A stretch of 64,000 nucleotides of DNA. Source: a virus. The notes beneath the pieces are model-generated. The model was not told the origin of the DNA, did no database searches, and saw only the letters and a program-made list of their open reading frames with translations. Numbering within the stretch: position 1 is the stretch's first letter; every line of letters begins with the position of its first letter. The stretch lies in the IMG/VR virus record IMGVR_UViG_3300045051_000987, positions 32,001 through 96,000 of that record; one strand, given 5' to 3'. The translations under genes and the position numbers were made by a program. Shown in pieces: positions 1,900 through 29,069 of this stretch.

Positions 1900-2109
1900 T
1901 CAGAAGCCTGCGCCGCCGTGCCATGCACCGGGGCCGTTGTCGGTGTCGATGAGCACGTCGTCGACGCGCACCGCACGCGTCCAGAGGTGCTCGCCACGCT
2001 TCACGCGGGGGTGGGTCTGTCCGGTCCAGAAGCGCTCGAGCTCTTCGGCCGTCGCCGCGCGGAGGTGAGCGCCGGTGGTGGGGTGCACGGCGACGTAGGT
2101 GGTGGGCAT
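1900..2109 (-). CDS. Hypothetical protein
   Basis: 69-aa ORF with GAGGAG SD. Confidence 0.6.
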   Translation of the reverse strand: MPTTYVAVHPTTGAHLRAATAEELERFWTGQTHPRVKRGEHLWTRAVRVDDVLIDTDNGPGAWHGGAGF

Positions 2110-2140
2110 CGTCTTGATCTCCTCGAAGGGTGCGCCGAGC

Positions 2141-2353
2141 TCAGCCGACCATCGTCATCACGACGTCGCGGATGCGCTGCATCTCGCTCGCGGTGAGGTC
2201 CGGCTCGTTGACCGAGAGCACGCGATCGGCCTGGTGGGCGATCTCGCGATCCGAGCACCACGACTCGATCTCGTGCTCGGGCACCTCGTGGTGGCGAGCG
2301 ATGCTCACCAGGAAGGAGGCCATCTCGCGGGTGGTGGTCGTGCGCTTCGTCAT
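2141..2353 (-). CDS. Hypothetical early protein
   Basis: Directly follows promoter cassette B. Confidence 0.7.
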   Translation of the reverse strand: MTKRTTTTREMASFLVSIARHHEVPEHEIESWCSDREIAHQADRVLSVNEPDLTASEMQRIRDVVMTMVG

Positions 2354-2359
2354 CGTCAG

Positions 2360-2430
2360 CTCCTTGGGGTGAACCCCGTTCGATTGATTTAGGTATACAG
2401 CACCCCTCCGAATCGCGCCAGAGAAAAAAG
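2360..2430 (-). promoter_or_regulatory. Early promoter cassette B (hairpin loop TTCA)
   Basis: TGGCGC-N17-TATACCTAAATCAATCG followed by GGGGTTCACCCC-AAGGAG. Confidence 0.85.
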
Positions 2431-2449
2431 CACGCGGTCGATTCTTTTT

Positions 2450-3274
2450 TCATTCCTCGATCGGACGGTACCCCGTGCGTGCGACCTGACCGAGCATCTC
2501 CCGACGCCAATCGAGCGCCGTGGGAAGGTCGTTCTGCATCCCCGTCTTCTCACGTCGCTCGTGGAAGCTCCACGCGAGAGAGTCTGCCGATCGGAAGCTC
2601 GATCCCGCGAGCGCGATCAGCCCGGTCTTCTTGAGGCCGAAGCCGTGGAGGTTCCGCAGCTCGAGATCGTCGAGGCGCATCGTCACGCGGAGGAGCAGAT
2701 CGGTCGACTGACGACGGCACACCGATCCGACGCCGACGACGGGCTCCTTCGAGAGATCGACGCCCGCGCGCGCGTAGAGCTCGGCGCAATCGAGGTAGGA
2801 CGCCGAGAGCCACCCTTGAAGCACCGGCGCGATCGGGAGGTCGGGCGCGATGCTCCGCAGCTCGAGGAAGTTGTCGACCGTGCGCCGCTGGTGCTCCTCG
2901 ACGCTCAGGCCCGTCTTCGCCGTCACGACGGGCTCGCACATCCAGTCCATGGGCGCCGCCCATTCGAGCTGTCCGACCTCGTCTCGAAGGCGCCGCACGT
3001 CGTCGCAGTACTCGCGCGGCGTGCGCGTCCACCGGCCGTGCTTGTTGAGCTCGGTGAAGCCCCCGGAGTCGAGCGCCCACGGGCCCCGAGCGCGCGGGAG
3101 ACGCGCCATCGCACCGAAGGCCTGACGCGCCACGAAGAGCCGGCACGGGGCCTCCGCGAGCCACCCCGGGCGGTGCACGCCGAGATAGAAGCGGAGGGGC
3201 ATGTCGGAACCCGCGTAGACCGGCGCGGGGGCCTTCACGCGGCCCGGGATCAGGCTGAGGTCGAGCTGACGCAT
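2450..3274 (-). CDS. TGT-fold DNA transglycosylase, DpdA-like (7-deazaguanine insertion)
   Basis: FYLG, LDSGGF, PMDWMCEP, PVLQGW, GVGSVCRR, LHGFG and SADSLAW motifs typical of phage DpdA/tgt-like proteins. Confidence 0.75.
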   Translation of the reverse strand: MRQLDLSLIPGRVKAPAPVYAGSDMPLRFYLGVHRPGWLAEAPCRLFVARQAFGAMARLPRARGPWALDSGGFTELNKHGRWTRTPREYCDDVRRLRDEVGQLEWAAPMDWMCEPVVTAKTGLSVEEHQRRTVDNFLELRSIAPDLPIAPVLQGWLSASYLDCAELYARAGVDLSKEPVVGVGSVCRRQSTDLLLRVTMRLDDLELRNLHGFGLKKTGLIALAGSSFRSADSLAWSFHERREKTGMQNDLPTALDWRREMLGQVARTGYRPIEE

Positions 3275-3278
3275 GGGA

Positions 3279-3488
3279 TCACCGCGGGAGGTTGAGACCG
3301 GCGCGGCGGAGCGCGGCGCGCGTGTTCTCGATCGCGCGGTTGCCGCCGCCGGGCGTCGAAGGGGTGAAGACCACCGCGCCCGTCGGCGACTTGAAGCGGA
3401 GGTGCCCGCCGCCGGTCTTCTCGACCGACCATCCCTGATCGATCGCCGCCTTCACGAACGGGCGGAGCTCGCGATGCACGGCGATCAC
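3279..3488 (-). CDS. HicA-like mRNA interferase-fold protein
   Basis: GWSVEKTGGGHLRFKSPTG...STP...LRRAG; GTGA overlap with upstream gene. Confidence 0.65.
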   Translation of the reverse strand: MIAVHRELRPFVKAAIDQGWSVEKTGGGHLRFKSPTGAVVFTPSTPGGGNRAIENTRAALRRAGLNLPR

Positions 3489-3844
3489 GAGAGCACCTCG
3501 AGCTGGGCTCGCGCGTCGAGCCACGAGGCGTTCAGCCAGTAGCGGCGGAAGAGCTTGATCGTCGCCTTCACCTGCGCGTCGATCATCTCGAGCGCGGTGG
3601 GGCAGAGCTCCCACTCGATCACCTCGTGCGGGAGGTCCCACACGACGGCCGTGAGGTTCCACGCGCCGTCGACGATGACGCGCTCGCCGAAGACGGCCTC
3701 ACGCACCTCGACGCCGAGCGAGCGATCGATGCGCACGATCACGCGTTGACCGTACTCGCGGATCCCGAGCTGTCCGCTCGGAACGCGCATCTCGATCGAG
3801 ATCACGTCGTCGGTGAGGAGGGTGTGGGCGGGTATGTGTCGCAT
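3485..3844 (-). CDS. Hypothetical protein
   Basis: Start MRHIPA preceded by a stand-alone GGGGCTTGCCCC-AAGGAG element (3853-3870). Confidence 0.65.
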   Translation of the reverse strand: MRHIPAHTLLTDDVISIEMRVPSGQLGIREYGQRVIVRIDRSLGVEVREAVFGERVIVDGAWNLTAVVWDLPHEVIEWELCPTALEMIDAQVKATIKLFRRYWLNASWLDARAQLEVLS

Positions 3845-3886
3845 GTCGGGATCTCCTTGGGGCAAGCCCCGTCGAGGGTGGAAGGA

Positions 3887-4168
3887 TCAGCCCTTGCGGG
3901 CGAGGAAGCTGAGGGCCGCCTTGAGCGTCGAGAAGGTCTCCACGAGGACGAACTCGCCATCGTTCATGTCCGGGCCGTCGAGCTCGCGCGTGGGGAAGCG
4001 GACGACCTCGACAGTCGTGAGGAGCGCCGAGGTGAGGTTGATCGCGTGACCGCCCTTCACGAACGACGAGAGGCGGTAGGCCGGGTTCGTCGTGAACGAG
4101 ACGCCGTTCGCCGCGCACCACGACTCCTGGGCCTGCGTGAGCTTCGTGATGTAGCCGTTCGTCGTCAT
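3887..4168 (-). CDS. Hypothetical early protein
   Basis: Follows promoter cassette C. Confidence 0.7.
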   Translation of the reverse strand: MTTNGYITKLTQAQESWCAANGVSFTTNPAYRLSSFVKGGHAINLTSALLTTVEVVRFPTRELDGPDMNDGEFVLVETFSTLKAALSFLARKG

Positions 4169-4177
4169 GGTCTCGTT

Positions 4178-4255
4178 CTCCTTGGGGCAAGCCCCGCGTC
4201 ACCGTCTCGATTGATTTAGGTATACACCCACCATCCCGAACGCGCCAGAAAAAAG
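4178..4255 (-). promoter_or_regulatory. Early promoter cassette C
   Basis: Same consensus, 17-bp spacer, hairpin plus SD. Confidence 0.85.
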
Positions 4256-4280
4256 ATTCGCCCCGATGTCGATTTCTTCC

Positions 4281-4778
4281 TCAGCCCTTCGGCGCCGGGC
4301 ATTCGCACGGCTTGCCGCGGTCGTTCAGCTCGCAGCACCCCGCGCGTTCCTCGACCACGAGCTCGTCGAGCCCGTACCCGACCGTGCGACCCGCGAGCCG
4401 GGCGAACATCCGCGCGCAGTACTTCGGGAAGCGGCCCGATGACCCGATGATCTCTTCGGCGTCGACCCACGCGCACCGGCGCGATCGAAGCGTGTCGTCG
4501 TGGGTCGCGATCGGACGCTCGCGCCGATCCTCCCATCGCGTCGCGAGGAAGGCCTCGCACGTGTGCGGGCCGGCGCTGTAGACGAGGATCGACGCGGCGC
4601 CGAGAAGCACGATCCCGGTCTCCTCGAAGAGCTCGCGCGACGCACACGCGAGGCTCGAGGCATCGGAGGCCTCACGCCGGCCACCGGGGAGCCCGAGCCC
4701 GTCGGGATGAAGCTCGACGAGCACGAGGTGCTTCGTGGGGTGGAAGAGGAGCACGCACGCTGCATTCGGCTCGGTCAT
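4281..4778 (-). CDS. Nudix hydrolase
   Basis: Nudix box LPGGRREASDASSLACASRELFEETGI. Confidence 0.85.
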   Translation of the reverse strand: MTEPNAACVLLFHPTKHLVLVELHPDGLGLPGGRREASDASSLACASRELFEETGIVLLGAASILVYSAGPHTCEAFLATRWEDRRERPIATHDDTLRSRRCAWVDAEEIIGSSGRFPKYCARMFARLAGRTVGYGLDELVVEERAGCCELNDRGKPCECPAPKG

Positions 4779-5326
4779 GACGTTCCTTCTCGCACGCGAC
4801 GCGCGCGCACCACAACGAGGGCGAACACGCGCCCGGCTTGATCGCCGGGCATGCGGATCGCGACGACGAGCTCAGGCGCGCGCTCGAGCACGACGAGCTC
4901 GGCGCCGGTGAGCGTGGCCTGGTGTCGCGCGCACGCGAGCGCGTCAGACGCGCCGTGCTCGTCGATCGTCCACTCCCATCCGGGCGTCGTCGCGAAGAGC
5001 ACCTCGCGCGCAGCGCCGTCGACGCCGAGCGACTCGACACGCTCGAGCGGGAGCGTGAGCACCATCGCCGTCGGGAGCTGCGCGCGCTCAGCGAGCGGGG
5101 CTCGCACGCGGCCTCTGATCTTCGACGTGTTCACCCGGGTGAACACGGGGCGCGGCGGACGTCCCTCGAGCGCGCGCAGGCGTCGAATGCACGTCGTCTC
5201 GTGCGGGTGGAAGGCTTGATCCGTCGCTTCCCCGATCGCGCGCGCCGCATCGGCGAAGCGCACGCCTTCAACGCGGATCTTCTTCACGAGGAGCGCGTCG
5301 AGCTCCGCCGTCCATGTCGAGGCCAT
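4775..5326 (-). CDS. Protein with GcrA-like N-terminal HTH
   Basis: Start MASTWTAELDALLVKKIRVEG...AARAIG, 7 nt after the CATGAT box; palindrome copy lies in the linker. Confidence 0.5.
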   Translation of the reverse strand: MASTWTAELDALLVKKIRVEGVRFADAARAIGEATDQAFHPHETTCIRRLRALEGRPPRPVFTRVNTSKIRGRVRAPLAERAQLPTAMVLTLPLERVESLGVDGAAREVLFATTPGWEWTIDEHGASDALACARHQATLTGAELVVLERAPELVVAIRMPGDQAGRVFALVVVRARRVREGTS

Positions 5327-5651
5327 CGGCCCGATCATGCCGCGACGCGTGCTCACGCATCCGGCGCTTCACCTCGGCCCGACCTCGCTCGACGATGCCC
5401 CGCACGACGTCGGAGATCCCGACGCGCATTGCCGGCGACACGGCCTGGGTGAGGAGCCGGGTCGAGACGCGCTCGAAGATCGCAGCCTCGCGATCGGCGT
5501 CGCACGCGTCGAGGCCCGAGCGCACCTTGATCTGAGCGATCCGCTCGAGCTTGCGCCCGCGCGCGATGAGCAGGTCGACGATCGCATCGTCGATCACGTT
5601 GATCTCGTGCCGCACGAGCTCGAGGTCGGCCGGGATGGGCGTGTCGCTCAC
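5268..5651 (-). CDS. Chorismate mutase, AroQ/type II
   Basis: LELVRHEINVIDDAIVDLLIARGRKLERIAQIK...DADREAAIFERV keeps the AroQ catalytic pattern (R, R, K, DxxRE); GTGA overlap with the cmoA-like stop. Confidence 0.8.
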   Translation of the reverse strand: MSDTPIPADLELVRHEINVIDDAIVDLLIARGRKLERIAQIKVRSGLDACDADREAAIFERVSTRLLTQAVSPAMRVGISDVVRGIVERGRAEVKRRMREHASRHDRADGLDMDGGARRAPREEDPR

Positions 5652-6379
5652 GACGACCTCACCGCGAGCCACGCGCCGAAGCTCAGGCACCGCCACACGC
5701 ACTCGACGGTCGTGAAGCCGGCGCCGCGGAGGAGATCCTCGTTCCACCGCGCCGTGCACGGCACGAGCACGCCCTCGAGCGATGCGGCCTTGCGGTCGAT
5801 CTCGTCGCGCGAGTAGCCCGCGGCCTCCTTTTCCGCGTGGTAGAGCGCGGTGAGCGCCTCGTCGGCCTCCGCGTCGCTCCCGAGCACCTTCTCGACGACG
5901 ATCAGCGCCCCGCCGGGCATCGTCGCCTTGAACACGTCGCGGAGGATGCGCTGGCGATGGTTGATCGGGAGGAACTGCATCGTGAGCACCGCGAGGGTCA
6001 CGCTCGCGCGCATGCTGAGCGACGGGTAGCCGGCGCGGAGGTCGGTCCCATGCACGAAGACGCGCCGCGTCGCGATCTCGCCTGCGAAGCGCGTGCGGCA
6101 GACCTCGAGCATCGGCTTCGACGTCTCGACGAGCTCGAAGACGTTCCGCAGCTCCGCGCGCGCGATCAGAGGAGCGATCGCGTCACCGCGCGAGGCGCCG
6201 AGGTCGACGATCGAGGAGCCCGGGCGCGCGTAGCGGTCCGCGAGGTTCGTCACGACGTCGCGCATCGCGTCGAGCTGCGGGATCGAGCGTCGGAGCATGT
6301 CCTCGAAGACACTCGCGACGCTCTCATCGAACTCCCATCGCTCGCGCGCGGGAAGGTGCCCAAGGCTCGACTCGCTCAT
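5648..6379 (-). CDS. cmoA: CmoA-like carboxy-S-adenosylmethionine synthase
   Basis: WEFDESVASVFEDMLRRSIP, DLGASRG, LTMQFLP...PGGALIVVEK, GYSRDEIDRK...LEGVL, AGF...WRCLSFG align along the full length with CmoA. Confidence 0.82.
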   Translation of the reverse strand: MSESSLGHLPARERWEFDESVASVFEDMLRRSIPQLDAMRDVVTNLADRYARPGSSIVDLGASRGDAIAPLIARAELRNVFELVETSKPMLEVCRTRFAGEIATRRVFVHGTDLRAGYPSLSMRASVTLAVLTMQFLPINHRQRILRDVFKATMPGGALIVVEKVLGSDAEADEALTALYHAEKEAAGYSRDEIDRKAASLEGVLVPCTARWNEDLLRGAGFTTVECVWRCLSFGAWLAVRSS

Positions 6380-7581
6380 GGGGCCGAGGATGCCTCGATC
6401 CAGCCCTCACGCACGAGCCCGAGCGGTGCGAAGACGCGATCGCGCAGCTCGCGCCCGATCGCGAACATCATCGGGGGCGGGACGCTGCGCGCGAGCCGCT
6501 CCCATTGCTGAGCGAACGTCCCCGTGAGCTCGAAGTCGTCGGGGAAGCCGCAGATCCGACGCAGCTCGCGGATCGTGAACTTCCGGCGCTCGAGCGGGTG
6601 CGTGACGCTCGCCGCGGGCTCGCCGCCCTTCACCGTGATGCACGGGCTCGGCTTGTTCACCGGCGCCTTGATCAGGTTGAAGTACTTCTCGGACCACACG
6701 CCGGGCCGGAGCTTGTTCCACTCCGCATCGAGGCTCGGAACCATCGCGCGGCGCGCGGCCTCGAGCTCCTCGATCGTCGGCTCGATCCCGCTCGGCTCAC
6801 CGATGATGTGCGGGATCGCTTCGGCGAGCGTGAACGCGCGCGCGAAGGGCTTGGGGTAGGGCACGTCGCTCGACGTCGCGATCCCGAGCTCGCTCGCGAG
6901 ATCACGGCGCACGCCGACGAGGATCACGCGCCCGCGCTGCTGAGGGACACCGAGCCACTGAGCATCGAGCTCGCGAGCGGCCGCGACGTAGCCAGCCGCC
7001 TCGAGCCGCTTCATCACCGTGTGGAAGTAGCCGAAGGCCTTGCCGCGCACGAAGCCCGACACGTTTTCTGCGATGAACGTCTTCGGCTTCACGCCCTCGA
7101 GCAGGCGGAGCCACTCGAAGAAGAGATCGTCGGTGCGCTGCTTCACGCCCGAGTAGGCCTTCACCTGGCCCCATCCCTTCTCGCGCGCGCCCACCATCGA
7201 GAAGCTCGAGCACGGGGGAGAGCCCTCGAAGACGTCGAGCTCTCCGGCCTTCACGCCCGCGCGCTCGAGCACCTCCTCGGGATGCACCGATCGGATGTCA
7301 CGCGGATCGAGGAAGACGCTCGCCGCGTGGTTCTTCACGTACGTCGCGCGCGCCTCCTCGATGAACTCGTTCGCGAAGACGACGTCGAAGCCGGCCATCT
7401 CGAGGCCGAGGCACGAGCCACCGCACCCTGAGAACGTCGACGCGACTCGCAGCCCCGTGGTGCCCCGTGCGCGCGCGATCGCGGCCATGTCGGGGACGCG
7501 GTAGCTCGTCGGCTCAGCTCTTCGTGACGGGGTTCCCGTGCCCGCAGCGCGAGCAGTAGACGATCGCCTTCGAGTTTGCAT
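6376..7581 (-). CDS. DNA (cytosine-5)-methyltransferase-family enzyme, predicted carboxymethyltransferase
   Basis: Motifs I FSGCGG, IV GSPPCSSFS, VI ENV, VIII QQRGR, IX RELRRICGFP; motif X reads LARSV instead of GNSV. Start 7581 (AAGGAG SD) or 7488. Confidence 0.9.
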   Translation of the reverse strand: MQTRRRSSTARAAGTGTPSRRAEPTSYRVPDMAAIARARGTTGLRVASTFSGCGGSCLGLEMAGFDVVFANEFIEEARATYVKNHAASVFLDPRDIRSVHPEEVLERAGVKAGELDVFEGSPPCSSFSMVGAREKGWGQVKAYSGVKQRTDDLFFEWLRLLEGVKPKTFIAENVSGFVRGKAFGYFHTVMKRLEAAGYVAAARELDAQWLGVPQQRGRVILVGVRRDLASELGIATSSDVPYPKPFARAFTLAEAIPHIIGEPSGIEPTIEELEAARRAMVPSLDAEWNKLRPGVWSEKYFNLIKAPVNKPSPCITVKGGEPAASVTHPLERRKFTIRELRRICGFPDDFELTGTFAQQWERLARSVPPPMMFAIGRELRDRVFAPLGLVREGWIEASSAP

Positions 7582-8179
7582 CGTGCTCCTTGAAATCCCC
7601 CGGGCTCTCGCGCCCGCTCGCACCCGGCCGATCGTCGCGCCCCGTCCCGATGTCCTTGAGCGTCGCGAGCATCGTCGTGACCTGCTCGTCGCTCCATCCG
7701 AGGCCTGCGACGCCGGGCTCGTACTCGCGGTGATCGGCGAGCATCTTCGTGAGGAGCTCCTCGTCGTAGCCCGCCGCGCGCCCGTGCTGGTTGTCCGCGA
7801 GCAGGTAGGCCTCGGCCTCCTCGGGGCCCGACCACGAGAGCCCGCGGATCACCGGCACGAGCCAGTCACCGTCGGGAGCGACGTCGATGCGCGCGGGACG
7901 CACCTTGCCGGTCGATCGGAGTGCGAGGAGCACCTCGATGCGTCCGTGACCCGCCACGACGGTCTGCGTCGTCTCGTCGAGCATCACCGGGAGCGTGTAG
8001 CCGAAGCGGTTCATCGACGCGGTCACGCCGTCGACGTCGTGGCGCTTGGGGTTCCGCGGCGCCTGGTGCTCGACGAGCCACGAGAGGCGCTCGTAGCTGA
8101 TCCGCATGCGCGCGGGCTCGGGGATCGGGGTCTGCGGAGGAGTCGGTGAAGGGGTCTTCTTCGTGCGTGCGTTCGCCAT
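7514..8179 (-). CDS. ParB/Srx N-terminal domain protein with C-terminal CxxC
   Basis: RNPKRH...SMNRFGYTLPVMLD...VVAGHGR...AYLLADN. Confidence 0.85.
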   Translation of the reverse strand: MANARTKKTPSPTPPQTPIPEPARMRISYERLSWLVEHQAPRNPKRHDVDGVTASMNRFGYTLPVMLDETTQTVVAGHGRIEVLLALRSTGKVRPARIDVAPDGDWLVPVIRGLSWSGPEEAEAYLLADNQHGRAAGYDEELLTKMLADHREYEPGVAGLGWSDEQVTTMLATLKDIGTGRDDRPGASGRESPGDFKEHDANSKAIVYCSRCGHGNPVTKS

Positions 8180-8224
8180 GTGCTCCCTGCTCGGCGCGAC
8201 CGTAGCAGGGCCAGGGGAGCGACG

Positions 8225-8500
8225 TCAGCCGCTCTCGACGCTCTCGCTCACGACCATCGGGGGCTTCACCTCCGACGTCGGCCACGGTGGACGCACGCGC
8301 CCGCCGTCCTCGAGCATCATCACGCTCTTCACGAGGGTGTTCGGGTCGACGCCGAAGCGCGCGGCCGCGACCTCGAGCAGCGCCTTCGCGATCGACTCCT
8401 CGGAGGAGTCGGCGGGCGTCGCGCAGTACGCGTAGACGATGTGCGCGAGATACTCCTCGGCCGTCACTTCTCGACCACGCTCCTTCTCAGCTTCCGGCAT
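8225..8500 (-). CDS. Hypothetical protein
   Basis: Start MPEAEK after AAGGAGG. Confidence 0.5.
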   Translation of the reverse strand: MPEAEKERGREVTAEEYLAHIVYAYCATPADSSEESIAKALLEVAAARFGVDPNTLVKSVMMLEDGGRVRPPWPTSEVKPPMVVSESVESG

Positions 8501-9011
8501 CTCCGGCCTCCTTCTCGAGGTTCGCGAACTTGAAGCCGCACGAGCACGGCGTCGGTGCGACGAGCGACCTCTCGGCGAGAGCACCGCACCGAGGGCACGT
8601 CGTGTGGACCTTCATCCCTTCGATCGCGCCATCGCCATCGAGCACACCGACCACGCCGGCACGTCGCGCGAACGCGACCGCGCGCCGCGTGACGCCGACG
8701 TGACCCTCGATCCATCCCACGCGAAGCCAGTGCAGACGCGAGCGGATCGAACGGTCGCGCGTGCTCTGCGCGATCATCGCGAAGAGCTTCGGCGCGATGT
8801 CGAGGAGCGCGTCGTCGACGGCGACCTTGCGAGCTGCGAGGCGCGTCGCCATCACCGCGACGTTCGCGCCGATGAGAGCGACGGGGAAGCTCTTCGGCGT
8901 GAAGAGCTGAGGGTGCGCGCGAAGGATGCGAAGCGCCTCCTCGAGAAGCGCGGTCACGCTCTTGAGCTCCTCGGCCGTGAGGGCTCGATCGTCGTGCTCG
9001 TTGTTCGTCAT
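8487..9011 (-). CDS. Hypothetical protein with C-terminal Zn ribbon
   Basis: CPRCG...CSCG. Confidence 0.55.
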   Translation of the reverse strand: MTNNEHDDRALTAEELKSVTALLEEALRILRAHPQLFTPKSFPVALIGANVAVMATRLAARKVAVDDALLDIAPKLFAMIAQSTRDRSIRSRLHWLRVGWIEGHVGVTRRAVAFARRAGVVGVLDGDGAIEGMKVHTTCPRCGALAERSLVAPTPCSCGFKFANLEKEAGDAGS

Positions 9012-9317
9012 GTGGCGTTCATCGGATCAGCGCGAGCCGGGGTGTGGCCGCGATGGTAGCAGGGGTGGGGGCTCGAACGATCGCACCGGCCTTCGACGCA
9101 TCTTCGAGACCATCGACGAAGGCTTCGCGCGCGGCGTGCTCGCCGGCACGCCGATCGGGATCGAAGAGCGCCGTCGCCATGCGGGTCATGATCCGCGAGC
9201 TCCACACCGACGCGTCGAGCGGCGTGCGCCACGTCCATCCGTTCTCGGCGAGCCGCAGATCGAGCTCGGCGCGGGTCTCGTCGCTCATCGTGAACACGGG
9301 GCCGGAGCGTACAGGGA

Positions 9318-10196
9318 TCAGCCCGCGTCGCGCGGGGGTGAGTCGTCCTCGCCATCGTCGCGCGGCATGAGGCGCTGAGCTCGCTCGACGAGGCGCGTGA
9401 GCCGCGTGACCTGCACGCCGCCGTTCGGATCGGCGCCCATGCGGATCGCGTAGGCCGTGAGGCCGGAGACGAGCACGCGCTTCTCGCTCTCGATGGTGTG
9501 GTCGAGCGTGACGCTGCATCCGAGCATGCCGAGCGTCGATTCCGTGTCGGCGGTCGCCGACATCACGAGCTCGGCGACGAAGTCCTCGAAGCTCTGCTCG
9601 CGATCCTTCCACACGTAGTCGGTGAGCCACGAATCGTCGCTCGTGAGCACGTCGATCAGCGTCGCAGCGACGCGCATGAGGCGAGGGAGCGGCTTCGCGA
9701 CGACCTTCTCGATCGCGACAACCTCCTCGAGCCGCGTCTTCGCATCGACGCCGAGCGCCGCGCACGCACGCTCGAAGGCATCCTCGATCGCCGAGGGCAC
9801 GATGCCGGGGAGCGAGGTGAGCAGGCGCATCTTCACGATGGCGCCCGCGAGGCGATCGAGAAACTCGTGCTCGGTGTCGACGAGGGCGCGAGACTGAGGC
9901 GCCATCATGAAGCGGATGTCGAAGACGAGATGGTTCTTCGTCTTGGCGACGTGCACGACCTCGAAGTTGCGCGTGTCGTCCGTCTTGAAGACCTCGTTCG
10001 ACTTGAGGAAGTCGCTGACCACATCGCGCATGGCGCGCCGCGAGGCCTCGGTGTTCGTGTCGCCCGCGAAGAGTGAGGCGAGCGTGTTGCGGAGCCGCGT
10101 CTCGACGTTCTTCGTGACGATGATGGGCTCGGCGATCGAATGGTCCGGCTCCTTGAGCACGACCACGGTTTCGGGATCGAACAGCAAATCAGACAC
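9318..10196 (-). CDS. Hypothetical protein; N-terminal part weakly resembles a tail-sheath C-terminal domain
   Basis: GAGGAGG SD; LFAGDTNTEASRRAMRDVVSDFL...FEVVHV...LVFDIRF. Confidence 0.55.
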   Translation of the reverse strand: MSDLLFDPETVVVLKEPDHSIAEPIIVTKNVETRLRNTLASLFAGDTNTEASRRAMRDVVSDFLKSNEVFKTDDTRNFEVVHVAKTKNHLVFDIRFMMAPQSRALVDTEHEFLDRLAGAIVKMRLLTSLPGIVPSAIEDAFERACAALGVDAKTRLEEVVAIEKVVAKPLPRLMRVAATLIDVLTSDDSWLTDYVWKDREQSFEDFVAELVMSATADTESTLGMLGCSVTLDHTIESEKRVLVSGLTAYAIRMGADPNGGVQVTRLTRLVERAQRLMPRDDGEDDSPPRDAG

Positions 10197-10214
10197 AGGG
10201 ACCTCCTCGAGATC

Positions 10215-11084
10215 TCAGAAGGGGATGTCTTCGGCCTGCTCGTGACCGCACGCCGAGCACTTCACGTGGCGCGTGCGATGCACAGCGCCGTCGACGCCGA
10301 CATCGACGATGGGCTTGAGATCCGTCGAGCCGCACGTGTCGCACTTCGGGTTCATCCACCGCGGCTCGGATGACTCGACGAGGGGTGGGATCGTGATCTG
10401 AACCTGCTCGGCTCGGAGGTCGGTGCCGCACTCCGAACACGAGAGGTGACCGTCTTCGACGCGCGCGCCGCATGCCCAGCACGTGCGCGGGAGAGGCGCG
10501 GGCTCGCCGACCACGACCTTCGAGTGAGCCGCGAGCGAGTTGGCCTCGGCGATCAGCTCCGCGCGCACCTCGGGCGTGAGGTCGGCGAGCCCGAGCTTCT
10601 TCGCCTCGCGCACGAAGCCCGCTTCGATGTCGCCGATGTGCTTGTCGAACTCGGCATAGAGGAAGTGAGCGTTGAACGACGAGACGCCCTCGCTCTTCTC
10701 GAACTTCGCAGCCTCCTCGTCGGTGAAGTCGTACTCGGGACGAGCACACGCGGGCTGCATCGCCTTCTTCGCGTTCTCGTACGCAAGCGCCGCGTCCGTG
10801 AGCGACTTCTCGGCCTCGCGGGCGTTCGTCCATGCGCGCGAGACCGCGTCGTTCGCAGCATCGAGCGCGGTTATCGCCTCCTTCTGCTTCGCCTTCGCAT
10901 GAGCATGGGTCGCCTGAGCGCGCGCGAGCTTGCCCGACGCCTCGAAGAGCTCGTAGCGCGCCTCGGCGACGTCGTCGTACGACGGAGGTGCCTTCTCGGT
11001 CGTGACGGGCGCGACGTCTTCGGCGTCTTCGGCGTCGACGTCCTTCGCTTCGTTCCGCGAGAGCACGTGGCGATGTTCGGTCAT
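10215..11084 (-). CDS. Coiled-coil protein with two Zn ribbons and an SSB-like EDIPF tail
   Basis: CWACG..CSECG, CDTCG..CSACG, ends AEDIPF; leaderless start. Confidence 0.7.
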   Translation of the reverse strand: MTEHRHVLSRNEAKDVDAEDAEDVAPVTTEKAPPSYDDVAEARYELFEASGKLARAQATHAHAKAKQKEAITALDAANDAVSRAWTNAREAEKSLTDAALAYENAKKAMQPACARPEYDFTDEEAAKFEKSEGVSSFNAHFLYAEFDKHIGDIEAGFVREAKKLGLADLTPEVRAELIAEANSLAAHSKVVVGEPAPLPRTCWACGARVEDGHLSCSECGTDLRAEQVQITIPPLVESSEPRWMNPKCDTCGSTDLKPIVDVGVDGAVHRTRHVKCSACGHEQAEDIPF

Positions 11085-11105
11085 GGCCCCATCATGCCGC
11101 GACGA

Positions 11106-13076
11106 TCAGCGGCCCGCGGTGAGCCTTCGGATCCGGTCGCTGATCGTCGCTGCGTCCGCACGACGCGGGAGCGACGACGGAAGGCCCTCGTGACCGCCGA
11201 TGATGCGCGCGCGCACCTCGCCCTTGCGCGTCTGCATCCCTCGAAGCCGACGGAGCGCCCACGTGCGAGCGAACCAGAGCCCCATGAGCCGATCGCCGGG
11301 GTGCGCACCGGGCACGTACGCGCGCATCTCGCCGAGGAGACGACGCACCTCGTCGGGCACGTCCTTGCCGTTGCGGCCGCTCGGGAGGCGCCATCGGTTC
11401 GCCTCGAACTCCGCCGCCATCGCGTCGATGCCGAGCACCTCGTCGTACTTGTTCCGGCCCGTGTAGAAGGGGAGCACCGGAACGCTGATAGACGAACCCT
11501 CCTCGTTCGCGAGGTCGACGATGTGCTTCTGGATGCCGTTGTCCTCGACCACGATGAAGCCGCCGAAGCGGTCCGCGACGTCGGAGAGGTTCCGCATCAC
11601 ATCGCCACCGCTCCATCGACCTGCGCGCGCGGCCACGAGCTGACGCATACCCGAGGGGTGCACCGCGATCGTGAACATCGTCGTCGCGCCGCCGGTCATC
11701 TTCCGCGACGCACCGAGATCGCAGCCCGTCACGATGAGCGTGCCCGACGGAGGCTCGCCGATGTTGTCGACGAAGCGGTAGCCCATGCCGAGACGGAGCG
11801 CGGCGCGGAGCCATTCGGGACGGAACGACATCGCACCGGGGTCACGCGGCTCGCACATGTACATGCGCGCGAACTCGAGCTCGTTGGCCTGCGTCTTCCG
11901 AACCTGTCGGATGCGGTGAAGGGGCCATCGCTCCGGCCACGTCGGGTTCCCCGCTTCGTCGAGCACGGGGTAGCGAAGCGTCACCCATCCGCCCTCACCG
12001 AGCTCGTGCGCGAGGTCTTCCTCGTGCCACGCGTTCGTCAAGAAGACCATCTTCGCCCCGGACGTGAGACGAGTCATGAACGTCCGACGGAACCAAGACG
12101 ACGTGTCCGCGCGCGCGGGAGCGCTCCGCGTGTTCTCGTAGTCGAGGAGGTCGTCGACGACGGCTCGATCGATGCGGGCGCCGAGGATGTTGCCGTGGAA
12201 GCCGAGACAGTAGATCGACGGGTCGCGCGCGAGAGACGCACGCTCGATGGTGATGGCGTCCTCGCGCCATAGACCGCCCGGACGGAGGTGAGGGAACACC
12301 GCCCGCAGCTCCGTCGAGCGCTCGAGGTATTTCTTCGTCGCCGAGAGGTTCTTCTTCGCGCCGTCCTGACCGTTGTTCAGGAACACCGTGCGGAGGTCGG
12401 GGTTGTTCCCGAGCTCGAAGAGCGTGCGCCCGACCGCGAACTGCTGTGTCTTCCCCGACTCCGGGTGTGCGAGGACGATCATGAAGTCCTCGCGGTCGTA
12501 GGTCGCCTGCATCTCGAGGTGGATGCGCGCTTGCTCGATGTCGGCGCCCGTCTCTTCGTCCTTGAGGACGAACTCGTTGAAGGTGTTCACGTCACGCCGC
12601 GCGAGCGCGAGGAGGCTCTCGTAGGCGTACCTCCCGGCCTCGATGCCGTCGGTCGGGAGCATGTCGTCGTCTTCGTCGCCGCCGGGGCTCTGAGAGGCGC
12701 CTGAGAGCGGCACCGAGGCATCCGACTCGATGGGGGGCTCGCCCGAGGCCCATACCGGACCGGTCTCCGACTCGGAACCGACGGGCACGGGGCCCCCGAG
12801 CGTGTCGGATTGATTTAGGATGCGGTCAGTTGCCGATTTTTGTAGCGAATCGGTGGAGGGGGGGACTACGGCCCTGAGCGCGCCGCGCGCGACGGAACTC
12901 GACCCCTCCCCCCCTCCCCCCGATCGTGAACCGCCGGCCACACTGCTCGCCTGCTTCCTGGGCTTGGGGCCTCGTGGTGCGTAGGGATCGACGACCTTCT
13001 TCGTTGCGTGTTCACCCGGGTGAACACGTGAGGGTGAGGGCTGCTCGAGCTGTCCCTTGTACATGCTCCGCTTCAC
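11106..13076 (-). CDS. terL: Terminase large subunit
   Basis: Walker A HPESGKT, Walker B GARIDRAVVDD, nuclease GCDLG and GDRLMGLWFA; the first ~138 aa are low-complexity (alternative start 12662). Confidence 0.88.
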   Translation of the reverse strand: MKRSMYKGQLEQPSPSRVHPGEHATKKVVDPYAPRGPKPRKQASSVAGGSRSGGGGEGSSSVARGALRAVVPPSTDSLQKSATDRILNQSDTLGGPVPVGSESETGPVWASGEPPIESDASVPLSGASQSPGGDEDDDMLPTDGIEAGRYAYESLLALARRDVNTFNEFVLKDEETGADIEQARIHLEMQATYDREDFMIVLAHPESGKTQQFAVGRTLFELGNNPDLRTVFLNNGQDGAKKNLSATKKYLERSTELRAVFPHLRPGGLWREDAITIERASLARDPSIYCLGFHGNILGARIDRAVVDDLLDYENTRSAPARADTSSWFRRTFMTRLTSGAKMVFLTNAWHEEDLAHELGEGGWVTLRYPVLDEAGNPTWPERWPLHRIRQVRKTQANELEFARMYMCEPRDPGAMSFRPEWLRAALRLGMGYRFVDNIGEPPSGTLIVTGCDLGASRKMTGGATTMFTIAVHPSGMRQLVAARAGRWSGGDVMRNLSDVADRFGGFIVVEDNGIQKHIVDLANEEGSSISVPVLPFYTGRNKYDEVLGIDAMAAEFEANRWRLPSGRNGKDVPDEVRRLLGEMRAYVPGAHPGDRLMGLWFARTWALRRLRGMQTRKGEVRARIIGGHEGLPSSLPRRADAATISDRIRRLTAGR

Positions 13077-13906
13077 AGCTCGAGCCCTTCCACGAGCTCA
13101 GCAACGTCTTCGTCTTCCACGTCCACCACCGACACGACCTTCGCTTCAAGCACCCTCTGCCGAGCCCGCTTCTTCTCGAACGCCTTGTTCGCTAGAGCGA
13201 GCCACTGTGCAGCCTCATCCTCAGTCATCTCCCCCACAGGGGACGGGTCTGCCCTGCCGAGGATGGTGGTGGGCTCTCCCATGAGCAGCCTGTTCATGTT
13301 CACCGTCCCCGCAGAGGCCTGCGTGGTGCGGTGCACAATCCCTCCGATGGTGCGTAGGACCGACATCCTGTCCCTCACCCCCATGGTCCGGATCTTCTCC
13401 GCATCGGAGAGGAGGGAATCGGCGATCTGCACACTGAGCTCGAGGAGCCTCGCGTTCACGTTCGTCAGCACGAGGGCGCTGATCCGGTTAGCCCTCACGA
13501 GCTTGACCTCCTCCTCCCTAGAAGCGACTGCGTCTCCGAGAACGAGGGTTTCCTGCTTCCGAGCCTTCTTCGTGGCTTCGAGGCGTGCTCGGAGGGCTTG
13601 GGCGTGTTCCTTGGCTTGCTCAATCGCGTCGGCCTTCTCAGCGGCCTTCGCCCGCTTGTCGAGCTCGACGCCCTTGGCGCGCGCGCAGTCGCGAAGGCTC
13701 GGAAGCTTGAGCCTCGGCTCTCCCGAATCGATCAGGCGCGTGGCGACCTCTCGGGAGACGCCTGCGGCCTGCGAGACGGCCGTGACCGTGCCGAACGCAA
13801 GCCAGGCCTCGCGAGCCTTCTCGTGCACCTCGGGCGGTACGACCGCGCTCGCCGCGGATGCGTGTTCACCCGGGTGAACACCGGGGCGCTTCGTGCGCTT
13901 CTTCAT
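13073..13906 (-). CDS. Putative terminase small subunit
   Basis: N-terminal HTH (VTAVSQAAGVSREVATRLI), helical body, RLLMGEPT motif; stop overlaps terL start. Confidence 0.6.
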   Translation of the reverse strand: MKKRTKRPGVHPGEHASAASAVVPPEVHEKAREAWLAFGTVTAVSQAAGVSREVATRLIDSGEPRLKLPSLRDCARAKGVELDKRAKAAEKADAIEQAKEHAQALRARLEATKKARKQETLVLGDAVASREEEVKLVRANRISALVLTNVNARLLELSVQIADSLLSDAEKIRTMGVRDRMSVLRTIGGIVHRTTQASAGTVNMNRLLMGEPTTILGRADPSPVGEMTEDEAAQWLALANKAFEKKRARQRVLEAKVVSVVDVEDEDVAELVEGLEL

Positions 13907-26938: not shown

Positions 26939-27300
26939 CGGTCGCCGGCCTTCTTGATCTCGGTCGACGTGAGGATCGGCGGAGCCTGCGGGACCTTCGA
27001 GATGATCTCAGCACCGCACTGACCTGCGACGTCGGCGGAGGGGTCGTGCCAGTGATCGCCGGCGTGTCCGCGTCGAAGCGTGCACACGAAGACGCCCTCG
27101 CTCACGAGCGTCACCGCGGTCTTGAGCGGGCTCGTCGCCGGCATCGCGGCCGCCGCCTCGGCCATCGCGACGTCATGCCGCCGAAGTACTTCGCGCAGCG
27201 CGCGAGCGAACGTCGGCCCGTCGATCCCCGCTGCGAACGCGAAGGCCTCGAGCCCACGCACGAGGCGCTTCACCTCTTCGTCGTCGCTCACCTTGATCAC
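26935..27300 (-). CDS. Hypothetical protein
   Basis: GTG start after GGAGGTG; CTLRRGHAGDH motif. Confidence 0.5.
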   Translation of the reverse strand: MIKVSDDEEVKRLVRGLEAFAFAAGIDGPTFARALREVLRRHDVAMAEAAAAMPATSPLKTAVTLVSEGVFVCTLRRGHAGDHWHDPSADVAGQCGAEIISKVPQAPPILTSTEIKKAGDR

Positions 27301-29069
27301 GTGGGCACCTCCGCGAGCATCATGCCGCCCATCGGGATCCCGTTCGGCTGAACCCACACCGATCCCGAGTCGAGCGAGAAGCCGCCGAGCTCGGACGCTG
27401 CGAGCGTCACGAGCATCTTCTCCGCGATCGCGCGCGCCGCACCGACGGGCACCGCGTTGCCGATGCGCTCCCGCCAGTCGCTCTGACTCTTGCCGGCGAG
27501 CACGAGCGGCGCGCCCTTCCACATCGTCGGGATCCCTTGGAGCGACGCAAGCTCGAGCGTCGTGAGCGGGCGGTGCCATGTCCCGTCCTTCGCGATGATC
27601 ACGGGGAGGAACGACGGCGCCTTCTTCGGCGTCGCGGCCGCGAGCCTGAGCGCCTCCTCGATGTCGGCGTTGAACGATGGGCCCGTGCGCGGCTCCGCCA
27701 CCGCGTACGCGCCGCACCCAACATGCGCGGTGCCTGCGATCGTGCGCGCGGCCTGCTCCCACCCGAGCACGGCATAGCCGGCGTCATAGGCGTACTTCAC
27801 GCGGACATCGGCCACACGCGGATCACCGACAGCGGGCCCGCCCGATCCGGGCTGCGTCGCCTTGATCACCGTGCGCGCGGGCTCGCTCCACTTCCCGACG
27901 GCGTACTTGTTCCAGTGCCGGCCCTCGCTCGGCGGGAGCTCGAGCGCGCGCGGGTCGGCCACCGCGAAGCGACCGTTCGAGGGGAGGCTCTCGCCGCACA
28001 CCGCGCCGGTCGGTTCCTCCCACGGCGAGACGCCGTAGGCGCCCGCGTGCGGCCCTCGGGGGTCGGCGACAGCGAACGCCCCGGTCGAGACGCCTGCTCG
28101 CCCTGTGACGGTCGGCGCGGGGCCCTCCCATGCCTTCACGCCGAGCACGCCCCCGAACCATTCGATCCGCGGTTCCTGCACGACGCCGATCGCGTTCGCA
28201 CCGGCGCCCGTGATCGTGCCGGTCGGCTCATCCCACGGCGCGACCTCGTGCCGCTTGAAGACCTCGCGCCTCGCCTGACCCTCGGCGAGCACGCCTTCGA
28301 GGTCACGCCAATCGCCGCCGGCCGGGATCATCGCGATGCGGACCCAGTTGAGGAACGAGATCTTCGGGAGCTCGTGGATCTTCCCGAACGCGCGCGCGTC
28401 CTCTGTCGCCGGCACGGGGAGCGACTCGAGCACCTCGCCGCACGCGCGCACCCGCTTCTTCGGGGGCTGGTAGAGCAGGCTCGAGCACCGCGCCTCGAGC
28501 CTCGCGACGAGCAGGTAGCGCCGTCGACGCTGAGCGAGCCCGCCGATCTCACCGCAGTCGTGGAAGCCCTCGTGCAGCCGGTAGCCGACGCCGCGGAGGA
28601 GCTTCTTCACCTGCTCGAGCATCGCCTTCGCGCGCGTCTTGAGGCGCGGCACGTTCTCGAGGAGCACGAGCCTCGGGAGCGAGCCCTTCCACGCCTCGAT
28701 CATCTTGCGCGTCCACGTCAGCGCGAGCGTGTTCATGCGCTGATACTTCTCGGTCTCGGCGAGCTCCTTCGGGAGGAGCCCGCTCGCCCCCTTGCACGGC
28801 GGGCTCATGAAGACGCAGTCGGGACCGATCGCGCCGTACCGCTCGAGGAGCTCGGCGACGGTGATCTCCTCGACGTCGCGGTGCCACGCCGTGCGCGTGT
28901 CGGTGAGGTAGTCGAAGTCGCGACACGCGTCCGGATCGAAGTCGATCCCGCCGATGCACTCGAAGCGGAGCGCGTGCCCGAAGAGGTGCGCGTGCGCATC
29001 GAGGAAGCCGCGAGCTCCCGCGCCGAGACCACCGAAGGGGAAGAGCGCGCGGAAGACGATCTCGCTCAC
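27297..29069 (-). CDS. DNA (cytosine-5)-methyltransferase with repetitive target-recognition region
   Basis: FGGLGAG, SPPCKG, ENVP, QRRRR, canonical motif X IGNAVP; repeated W-x-x-P...AVADPR units. Confidence 0.9.
   Translation of the reverse strand: MSEIVFRALFPFGGLGAGARGFLDAHAHLFGHALRFECIGGIDFDPDACRDFDYLTDTRTAWHRDVEEITVAELLERYGAIGPDCVFMSPPCKGASGLLPKELAETEKYQRMNTLALTWTRKMIEAWKGSLPRLVLLENVPRLKTRAKAMLEQVKKLLRGVGYRLHEGFHDCGEIGGLAQRRRRYLLVARLEARCSSLLYQPPKKRVRACGEVLESLPVPATEDARAFGKIHELPKISFLNWVRIAMIPAGGDWRDLEGVLAEGQARREVFKRHEVAPWDEPTGTITGAGANAIGVVQEPRIEWFGGVLGVKAWEGPAPTVTGRAGVSTGAFAVADPRGPHAGAYGVSPWEEPTGAVCGESLPSNGRFAVADPRALELPPSEGRHWNKYAVGKWSEPARTVIKATQPGSGGPAVGDPRVADVRVKYAYDAGYAVLGWEQAARTIAGTAHVGCGAYAVAEPRTGPSFNADIEEALRLAAATPKKAPSFLPVIIAKDGTWHRPLTTLELASLQGIPTMWKGAPLVLAGKSQSDWRERIGNAVPVGAARAIAEKMLVTLAASELGGFSLDSGSVWVQPNGIPMGGMMLAEVPT

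Follow-up and report, generated by a model that had tools for sequence, protein, structure and literature searches.

A chorismate-mutase-like gene coupled to a CmoA-CmoX module in an uncultured high-GC phage: a candidate precursor-supply extension of DNA cytosine carboxymethylation

Carboxymethylation of phage DNA was described by Yang et al. (Nat Commun, December 2025; PMC12783734) in Synechococcus phage S-B43, whose CmoA makes carboxy-S-adenosylmethionine (carboxy-SAM, Cx-SAM) from S-adenosylmethionine (SAM) and prephenate, and whose CmoX, a C5-methylase homolog, writes 5-carboxymethylcytosine (5cxmC) at GC motifs; a further enzyme, CmoY, ligates glycine to this product. The hallmarks of CmoX are an SPPC motif and Arg350, which replaces Asn304 of HhaI and touches the cofactor carboxylate, and Cx-SAM was the only cofactor accepted by wild-type SpCmoX (PMC12783734). 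The same study reported 5,615 candidate CmoX contigs, many of which encode CmoA, a ligase and a ParBc protein as well, and its discussion stated that the availability of prephenate needs investigation (PMC12783734). Here, we analyzed a stretch of viral DNA of 64,000 nucleotides (hereafter the window), bases 32001-96000 of the IMG/VR record IMGVR_UViG_3300045051_000987, in which genes for a CmoX-type transferase and a CmoA homolog are followed directly by a gene for an AroQ chorismate-mutase-like protein. Based on sequence comparisons, we consider it probable, at roughly two chances in three (about 0.65), that this locus belongs to the published phage CmoA-CmoX system and adds to it a gene for precursor supply.

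The source record is 113,552 bp long with 68% G+C, is rated complete by CheckV, and holds almost all of its genes on the minus strand. The locus shares with the S-B43 system a CmoA gene next to a C5-methylase homolog with SPPC and the hallmark Arg, a ParBc neighbor and the lack of CmoB, whereas it differs in the absence of CmoY, in the AroQ mutase coupled to CmoA, and in its origin from a high-GC uncultured phage. In the proposed pathway, the AroQ protein would convert host chorismate to prephenate, CmoA would combine prephenate with SAM to form carboxy-SAM, and the CmoX-type transferase, with its motif-X Arg binding the cofactor carboxylate, would move the carboxymethyl group to C5 of cytosine in phage DNA. 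A free-standing mutase without regulatory domains could provide a pool of prephenate that host feedback does not control and that is not channeled straight to Phe and Tyr synthesis.

This route from chorismate through prephenate and Cx-SAM to 5cxmC had been proposed in an earlier sequence-only reading of the window, and as a prediction it is supported by, and fits, all the tests made here. The same reading had called the operon self-contained, which does not hold because host chorismate and SAM would still be drawn on. The CmoA-CmoX core has already been published (PMC12783734), and the reading was right in mentioning a recent report of phage CmoA with a carboxymethyltransferase; as the part that looked undescribed it had named the precursor-supply enzyme. 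The mutase, together with the DAHP synthase found in relatives, is the unpublished variant. The words chorismate and mutase are absent from the text of that paper and its three supplementary files, and a search of the available library for literature linking chorismate mutase or prephenate with Cx-SAM, CmoX or phage found nothing further, so that within this scope the precursor-supply link appears undescribed.

The three genes lie on the minus strand, and their coordinates and junctions were confirmed from the sequence. The putative CmoX-type DNA cytosine C5-carboxymethyltransferase (401 amino acids) occupies 6376..7581, the phage-type CmoA, a carboxy-SAM synthase homolog of 243 amino acids, 5648..6379, and the AroQ chorismate-mutase-like protein (127 amino acids, with a core of residues 1 to about 100) 5268..5651. 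The CmoA ATG overlaps the transferase stop codon TGA in an ATGA at 6376-6379, and the GTG start of the mutase overlaps the CmoA stop codon in a GTGA at 5648-5651. Because the stop and start codons overlap, this layout suggests that the enzymes are translated together. Scans for promoters and terminators across positions 2000-13500 of the window found none.

The transferase matched PF00145 DNA_methylase (E = 5e-49) and TIGR00675 (E = 3e-44). Its best match in the PDB was SpCmoX (8YF3, E = 1.5e-59), with HaeIII next (8e-21), and the SpCmoX alignment spanned residues 13-353 of a 370-aa reading of the protein. An SPPC motif (GSPPCSSFS) is present with Cys124 encoded at 7210-7212, and an ENV motif lies at residue 172 (both in 401-aa numbering). 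Arg365 (codon 6487-6489) aligns to SpCmoX Arg350 and HhaI Asn304 in motif X, where LARSVPP of the transferase pairs with VGRMVPP of 8YF3; a basic residue at the motif-X Asn is what the sequence-only reading had named as the mark of C5-methylases able to transfer carboxymethyl from Cx-SAM. All five inspected viral CmoX sequences linked to a mutase likewise have Arg at this position. By these features the transferase is a CmoX-type enzyme, and carboxymethyl transfer to DNA cytosine is its predicted activity. Two start codons are available, ATG 7581 (401 aa) and ATG 7488 (370 aa), and 7581 appears the better one because AGGAG is located 4 nt upstream of it and because YRVPxM, an N-terminal motif conserved in relatives, is encoded upstream of ATG 7488.

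The genome also provides an internal contrast. At 27297-29069 on the minus strand it encodes a second methylase of the C5-cytosine type (590 aa), which has SPPC, ENV and a canonical GNAVP motif X, with motifs VIII and IX separated by a long insert, and thus keeps Asn where the CmoX-type transferase has Arg. No CmoY-type or asparagine-synthase-like amide ligase was found anywhere in the 113.5-kb genome, and for this reason the modification probably goes no further than 5-carboxymethylcytosine.

The CmoA homolog aligned to TIGR00740 over residues 13-240 of 243 (E = 5e-42), belonged to the phage family phrog_4752 (E = 5e-63), and had 1948 relatives at E<=1e-20 with identities of up to 73%. E. coli CmoA (4GEK) aligned to it over its full length (E = 5.5e-32), and the SAM-binding residues of the E. 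coli enzyme are conserved. Full-length CmoA homology and these residues are what the locus shares with the E. coli CmoA/CmoB pathway to tRNA cmo5U; it differs from that pathway in having no CmoB, no tRNA genes and no Arg199, and in having a DNA transferase as its partner. The sequence-only reading had recognized no CmoB in the window, and this extends to the entire 113.5-kb complete genome, where a search with PF08003 found none; tRNA genes were not found in the genome either. Since both are missing, a role of the CmoA homolog in tRNA modification is unlikely as judged from gene content.

The third protein matched PF01817 CM_2 with 38.8 bits, above the gathering cut-off of 27. An AlphaFold2 model built with an alignment of ten CmoA-linked homologs showed three helices (pLDDT 90.7), and nearly all top Foldseek matches of the model were AroQ mutases or the related PchB lyase. 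The best-studied comparison, the E. coli chorismate mutase at the PheA N-terminus (EcCM; 1ECM, AroQ-alpha), superposed with a target TM of 0.88 and a root mean square deviation of 1.5 A in Foldseek, whose E-values for this protein were weak, as expected of a short helical protein. The two share the three-helix fold and six catalytic residues, with R14, R31, K42, D51, R54 and E55 of the window's protein corresponding to R11, R28, K39, D48, R51 and E52 of EcCM, and these six are invariant in 10 of 10 CmoA-linked mutases. In contrast to EcCM, the window's mutase is free-standing, without a dehydratase or regulatory domain, has Gly and Val at Ser84 and Gln88, and carries an extra tail of about 27 residues. 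This tail is of low confidence in the model, overlaps the next gene and is missing in one linked contig (L171), and it is common to the window and another (L170). Fold and residues together indicate a pocket for chorismate or prephenate and make mutase activity likely, with uncertain efficiency. The identities that the sequence-only reading had given to all three proteins agree with their PF00145, TIGR00740 (below cut-off) and PF01817 matches. When 50,697 cultured phage records were searched by tblastn with the mutase, none matched, and a word-index search returned only the mutase itself.

To place this gene arrangement in a wider context, we surveyed 240 CmoA loci (80 each from IMG/VR, species genomes and metagenomes), scanning them with PF01817 and a custom mutase hidden Markov model. 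A mutase was found in 10 further distinct contigs (L002, L016, L021, L024, L030, L170, L171, L186, L191 and L243), and both closest surveyed relatives of the window's CmoA (72% and 68% identity) have one; the sequence-only reading had named co-occurrence in related phages as a test of its proposal, and the outcome favors it. All 10 mutases lie on the CmoA strand and within about 2 kb of it. Six of them (L002, L021, L024, L170, L171 and L243) show a GTGA or ATGA in which the stop codon of CmoA and the start codon of the mutase overlap, and in L191 the mutase abuts the CmoA stop, giving overlap or abutment in 7 of 10. Two contigs, L030 (46% G+C) and L016, have the alternative order ParB-mutase-CmoX. 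A FastTree phylogeny built from 217 distinct CmoA sequences requires a minimum of seven state changes to account for its 11 mutase-positive rows, and the link between mutase and CmoA therefore recurs in several CmoA lineages. GC content did not clearly separate loci with a mutase from those without. No close relative emerged when IMG/VR was scanned with CmoA or the mutase as single proteins, and no CmoA-mutase fusion was found among longer CmoA proteins; open frames of 331-343 aa that resembled fusions were set aside as upstream read-through in high-GC DNA.

Several observations weigh against an extended CmoA-CmoX system, and they lie in the CmoA homolog, in the AroQ-like protein and in the distribution of its gene. 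The CmoA homolog scored 144.1 bits against TIGR00740, below the equivalog cut-off of 193.3, and has Ala at the position of E. coli Arg199, a residue that forms a salt bridge to the cofactor carboxylate (PMC3663124). One could accordingly suppose that the transferase is an ordinary 5-methylcytosine (5mC) methylase and that CmoA serves host tRNA modification, SAM depletion or some other purpose, and SAM depletion has been raised as a possible side effect of the published system (PMC12783734). We regard this as the least probable of the explanations considered, since the transferase carries the motif-X Arg and wild-type SpCmoX accepts only Cx-SAM (PMC12783734), a separate canonical methylase of the Asn type is encoded in the same genome, and neither CmoB nor tRNA genes were found in it. 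As for Arg199, the CmoA of Synechococcus phage S-B05 has Glu at this position, and this cyanophage carries the same CmoA-ligase-CmoX gene set as S-B43. Because the S-B05 CmoA also lacks the residue, Arg199 is, judging by the aligned proteins, no requirement of the phage type. Lys198 is invariant in the compared CmoA sequences, and most phage sequences have Arg two positions earlier.

In the AroQ-like protein, the PF01817 match covers only profile positions 1-59 of 80, corresponding to the first two helices, and G90 and V94 stand at EcCM Ser84 and Gln88, a loss overlooked by the sequence-only reading. All 8 linked mutases that align at position 88 have V, I, L, M or P there, and many of the nearest library relatives have the usual S-R-x-L-Q/E motif, with Q or E at 88. 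Since the Q88A change costs EcCM a 2e4-fold loss of activity (PMC4281200), catalysis by the window's protein may be weak or partner-dependent. It could then be that the protein is not an efficient mutase and binds chorismate or prephenate as a ligand-binding, partner-dependent or regulatory factor, with variants in which it is activated by CmoA or DAHP synthase, hands prephenate over to CmoA, or resembles the regulatory domain of the Bacillus DAHP synthase. The hydrophobic residue at 88 across the linked set and the Gly at 84 in the window fit such a role, and the mutase-like regulatory domain of the B. subtilis DAHP synthase was among the top fold matches. AroQ-delta mutases also lack both Ser84 and Gln88; they need DAHP synthase for full activity and are about 100-fold less active without it (PMC4281200).

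DAHP synthases do occur near some of the linked genes. In L021, the order ParB-CmoX-UDG-ligase-CmoA-mutase is followed by a DAHP synthase (PF00793, E = 1e-66), and in L191 a fusion of mutase and DAHP synthase stands directly after CmoA; in L184, a DAHP synthase lies just upstream of CmoA in a ParB module. The window's protein thus resembles AroQ-delta (M. tuberculosis Rv0948c) in lacking Ser84 and Gln88, in having a small residue and Arg at 84-85, and in the presence of DAHP synthase in some linked phage contigs. It falls outside the AroQ-delta definition, as it has Gly-Arg-Ala at 84-86, so that the Arg85-Gly86 dyad is incomplete (Arg-Ala), and Gly86 is absent in 10 of 10 linked mutases. It also keeps the Lys39 equivalent where AroQ-delta has Arg, and its helix 3 is predicted to be long, reaching residue 108. 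Compared with AroQ-delta systems, the phage DAHP synthases belong to PF00793 (DAHP_synth_1), and DAHP synthase, the only aromatic-pathway gene searched for in the window's genome, was not found there. Strict conservation of the six catalytic residues is no less consistent with catalysis than with binding. On balance, the reading of the protein as a weakly active, partner-dependent, binding or regulatory factor seems unlikely to us, although with the Gln88 replacement in its favor it is the main rival to plain prephenate supply. Still less likely is a more specific proposal, in which the CmoA-linked AroQ proteins would form a specialized subfamily without Gln88, active only when paired with CmoA or with a DAHP synthase of phage or host, which together with the DAHP synthases of related contigs would make up a phage-encoded shikimate branch dedicated to DNA modification and might hand prephenate directly to CmoA. 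The Arg after position 84 was considered as a phage-specific marker and dropped, being present in 120 of the 149 nearest free-standing AroQ representatives.

As regards distribution, a mutase accompanies CmoA at only about 5% of some 205 distinct loci with enough flank. It was found at none of the 80 CmoA loci of bacterial genomes or metagenome-assembled genomes (MAGs) and in none of five cultured phages with CmoA (TurkishDelight, S-B05, Afa-NA1, PaBG and Y3). Because the mutase is a minority feature of CmoA loci, the CmoA system works without it, and in an in vitro mutase-CmoA cascade the spontaneous rearrangement of chorismate sufficed for CmoA (PMC7496830). Absence from most CmoA loci, and the many auxiliary metabolic genes carried by phages, would agree with a mutase that acts as a general metabolic or host-takeover gene, draining chorismate or sustaining aromatic amino acids with no role in DNA modification. 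We consider this very unlikely, given that every one of the other 10 mutases is on the same strand as and close to CmoA, that seven share the stop/start junction, and that the association appears in several CmoA lineages and two gene orders; in addition, no other aromatic-pathway gene was found in the genome, DAHP synthase being the only one searched for. A CmoX-like gene was inside the fetched flanks at only 64 of 240 CmoA loci, and in many phages CmoA may work with a different transferase. In L184, two open reading frames that are ParB-like or ParB-fused stand in place of a CmoX-like gene.

If the extended CmoA-CmoX system operates as proposed, its demand for prephenate can be estimated. The genome contains 28,326 GpC cytosines per copy, and if GpC were targeted as by SpCmoX, this would mean 28,326 transfers per genome copy, with one prephenate consumed for each. 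That a phage encodes the prephenate step, and relatives a DAHP synthase, suggests that in some hosts the chemistry is limited by how much precursor is available. The mutase would thereby address the question of the prephenate source left by the 2025 paper and offers a testable answer to it. It would also be an auxiliary metabolic gene of aromatic amino acid synthesis recruited to DNA modification, to our knowledge a new kind, and in practical terms a possible route to higher Cx-SAM in engineered cells. The gene identities, motifs, fold and recurrent linkage are what the analysis shows; the enzymatic activities, the target motif and, for the modification itself, a protective, anti-restriction role are inferred.

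The three genes belong to a module of six that runs head to tail on the minus strand from 8179 to 4281, with a ParB-like gene first and a NUDIX gene last, and the large terminase (11106-13076) lies 3 kb upstream of it. The ParB-like (ParBc) protein (7514..8179, minus strand) matched phrog_620 (ParB-like, E = 3e-25) and had no Pfam match at E<=0.01; the same slot is filled in L002, L021, L030 and L243. After the mutase gene comes a 188-aa protein without assigned function (4775..5339, minus strand), whose gene begins within the mutase tail, with about 72 nt shared. It had no Pfam, NCBIfam or PHROG match; its N-terminus, MIGxMA..WT.ELDALL, is kept in L170, and a GcrA/Myb-like similarity (score 0.79) is a weak lead only. 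The NUDIX hydrolase gene (4281..4778; PF00293, E = 2.3e-10), also on the minus strand, is coupled by ATGA to this preceding gene. Alcaligenes phage Afa-NA1 likewise has a NUDIX gene after its CmoA gene.

Other gene neighborhoods of CmoA showed further associations. A UDG-superfamily protein (PF03167, E = 1.2e-7) is encoded at 6198-6644 of L021 and 2158-2568 of L243, in several contigs the corresponding gene is flanked by CmoX on one side and by the ligase or CmoA on the other, and one library protein (P0075) is a CmoA-UDG fusion. The cultured jumbo Pseudomonas phage PaBG (L251) has the order ParB-CmoX-CmoA-hypothetical protein (150 aa)-asparagine synthase, in which the hypothetical protein (3756-4208) holds the position of the mutase and is not CM_2. 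In a Ktedonobacteria MAG contig (L148, 4726-7077), the gene for a 384-aa CmoA-like protein is immediately preceded by one for a DAHP synthase; this locus is beside dnaK and dnaJ and is cellular, not phage.

Signs of other DNA modification were also present in the genome. A DpdA homolog is encoded at 2450-3274 on the minus strand (PF23859, E = 1.6e-63; phrog_1279), DpdA being the enzyme that inserts 7-deazaguanine into DNA. QueC, QueD and FolE were not found in the genome, and any guanine modification would therefore rely on host precursors; the cytosine pathway, in contrast, would bring its own precursor enzyme. Because the second, canonical methylase is also present, the phage DNA may carry 5mC, 5cxmC and deazaguanine together. 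Over the whole 113,552-bp genome, and relative to expectations from base composition with codon usage uncontrolled, CTGCAG occurs 0 times against 38.6 expected and GAATTC once against 8.3, while GATC, GAGCTC and CTCGAG are over-represented 4.6- to 7.7-fold.

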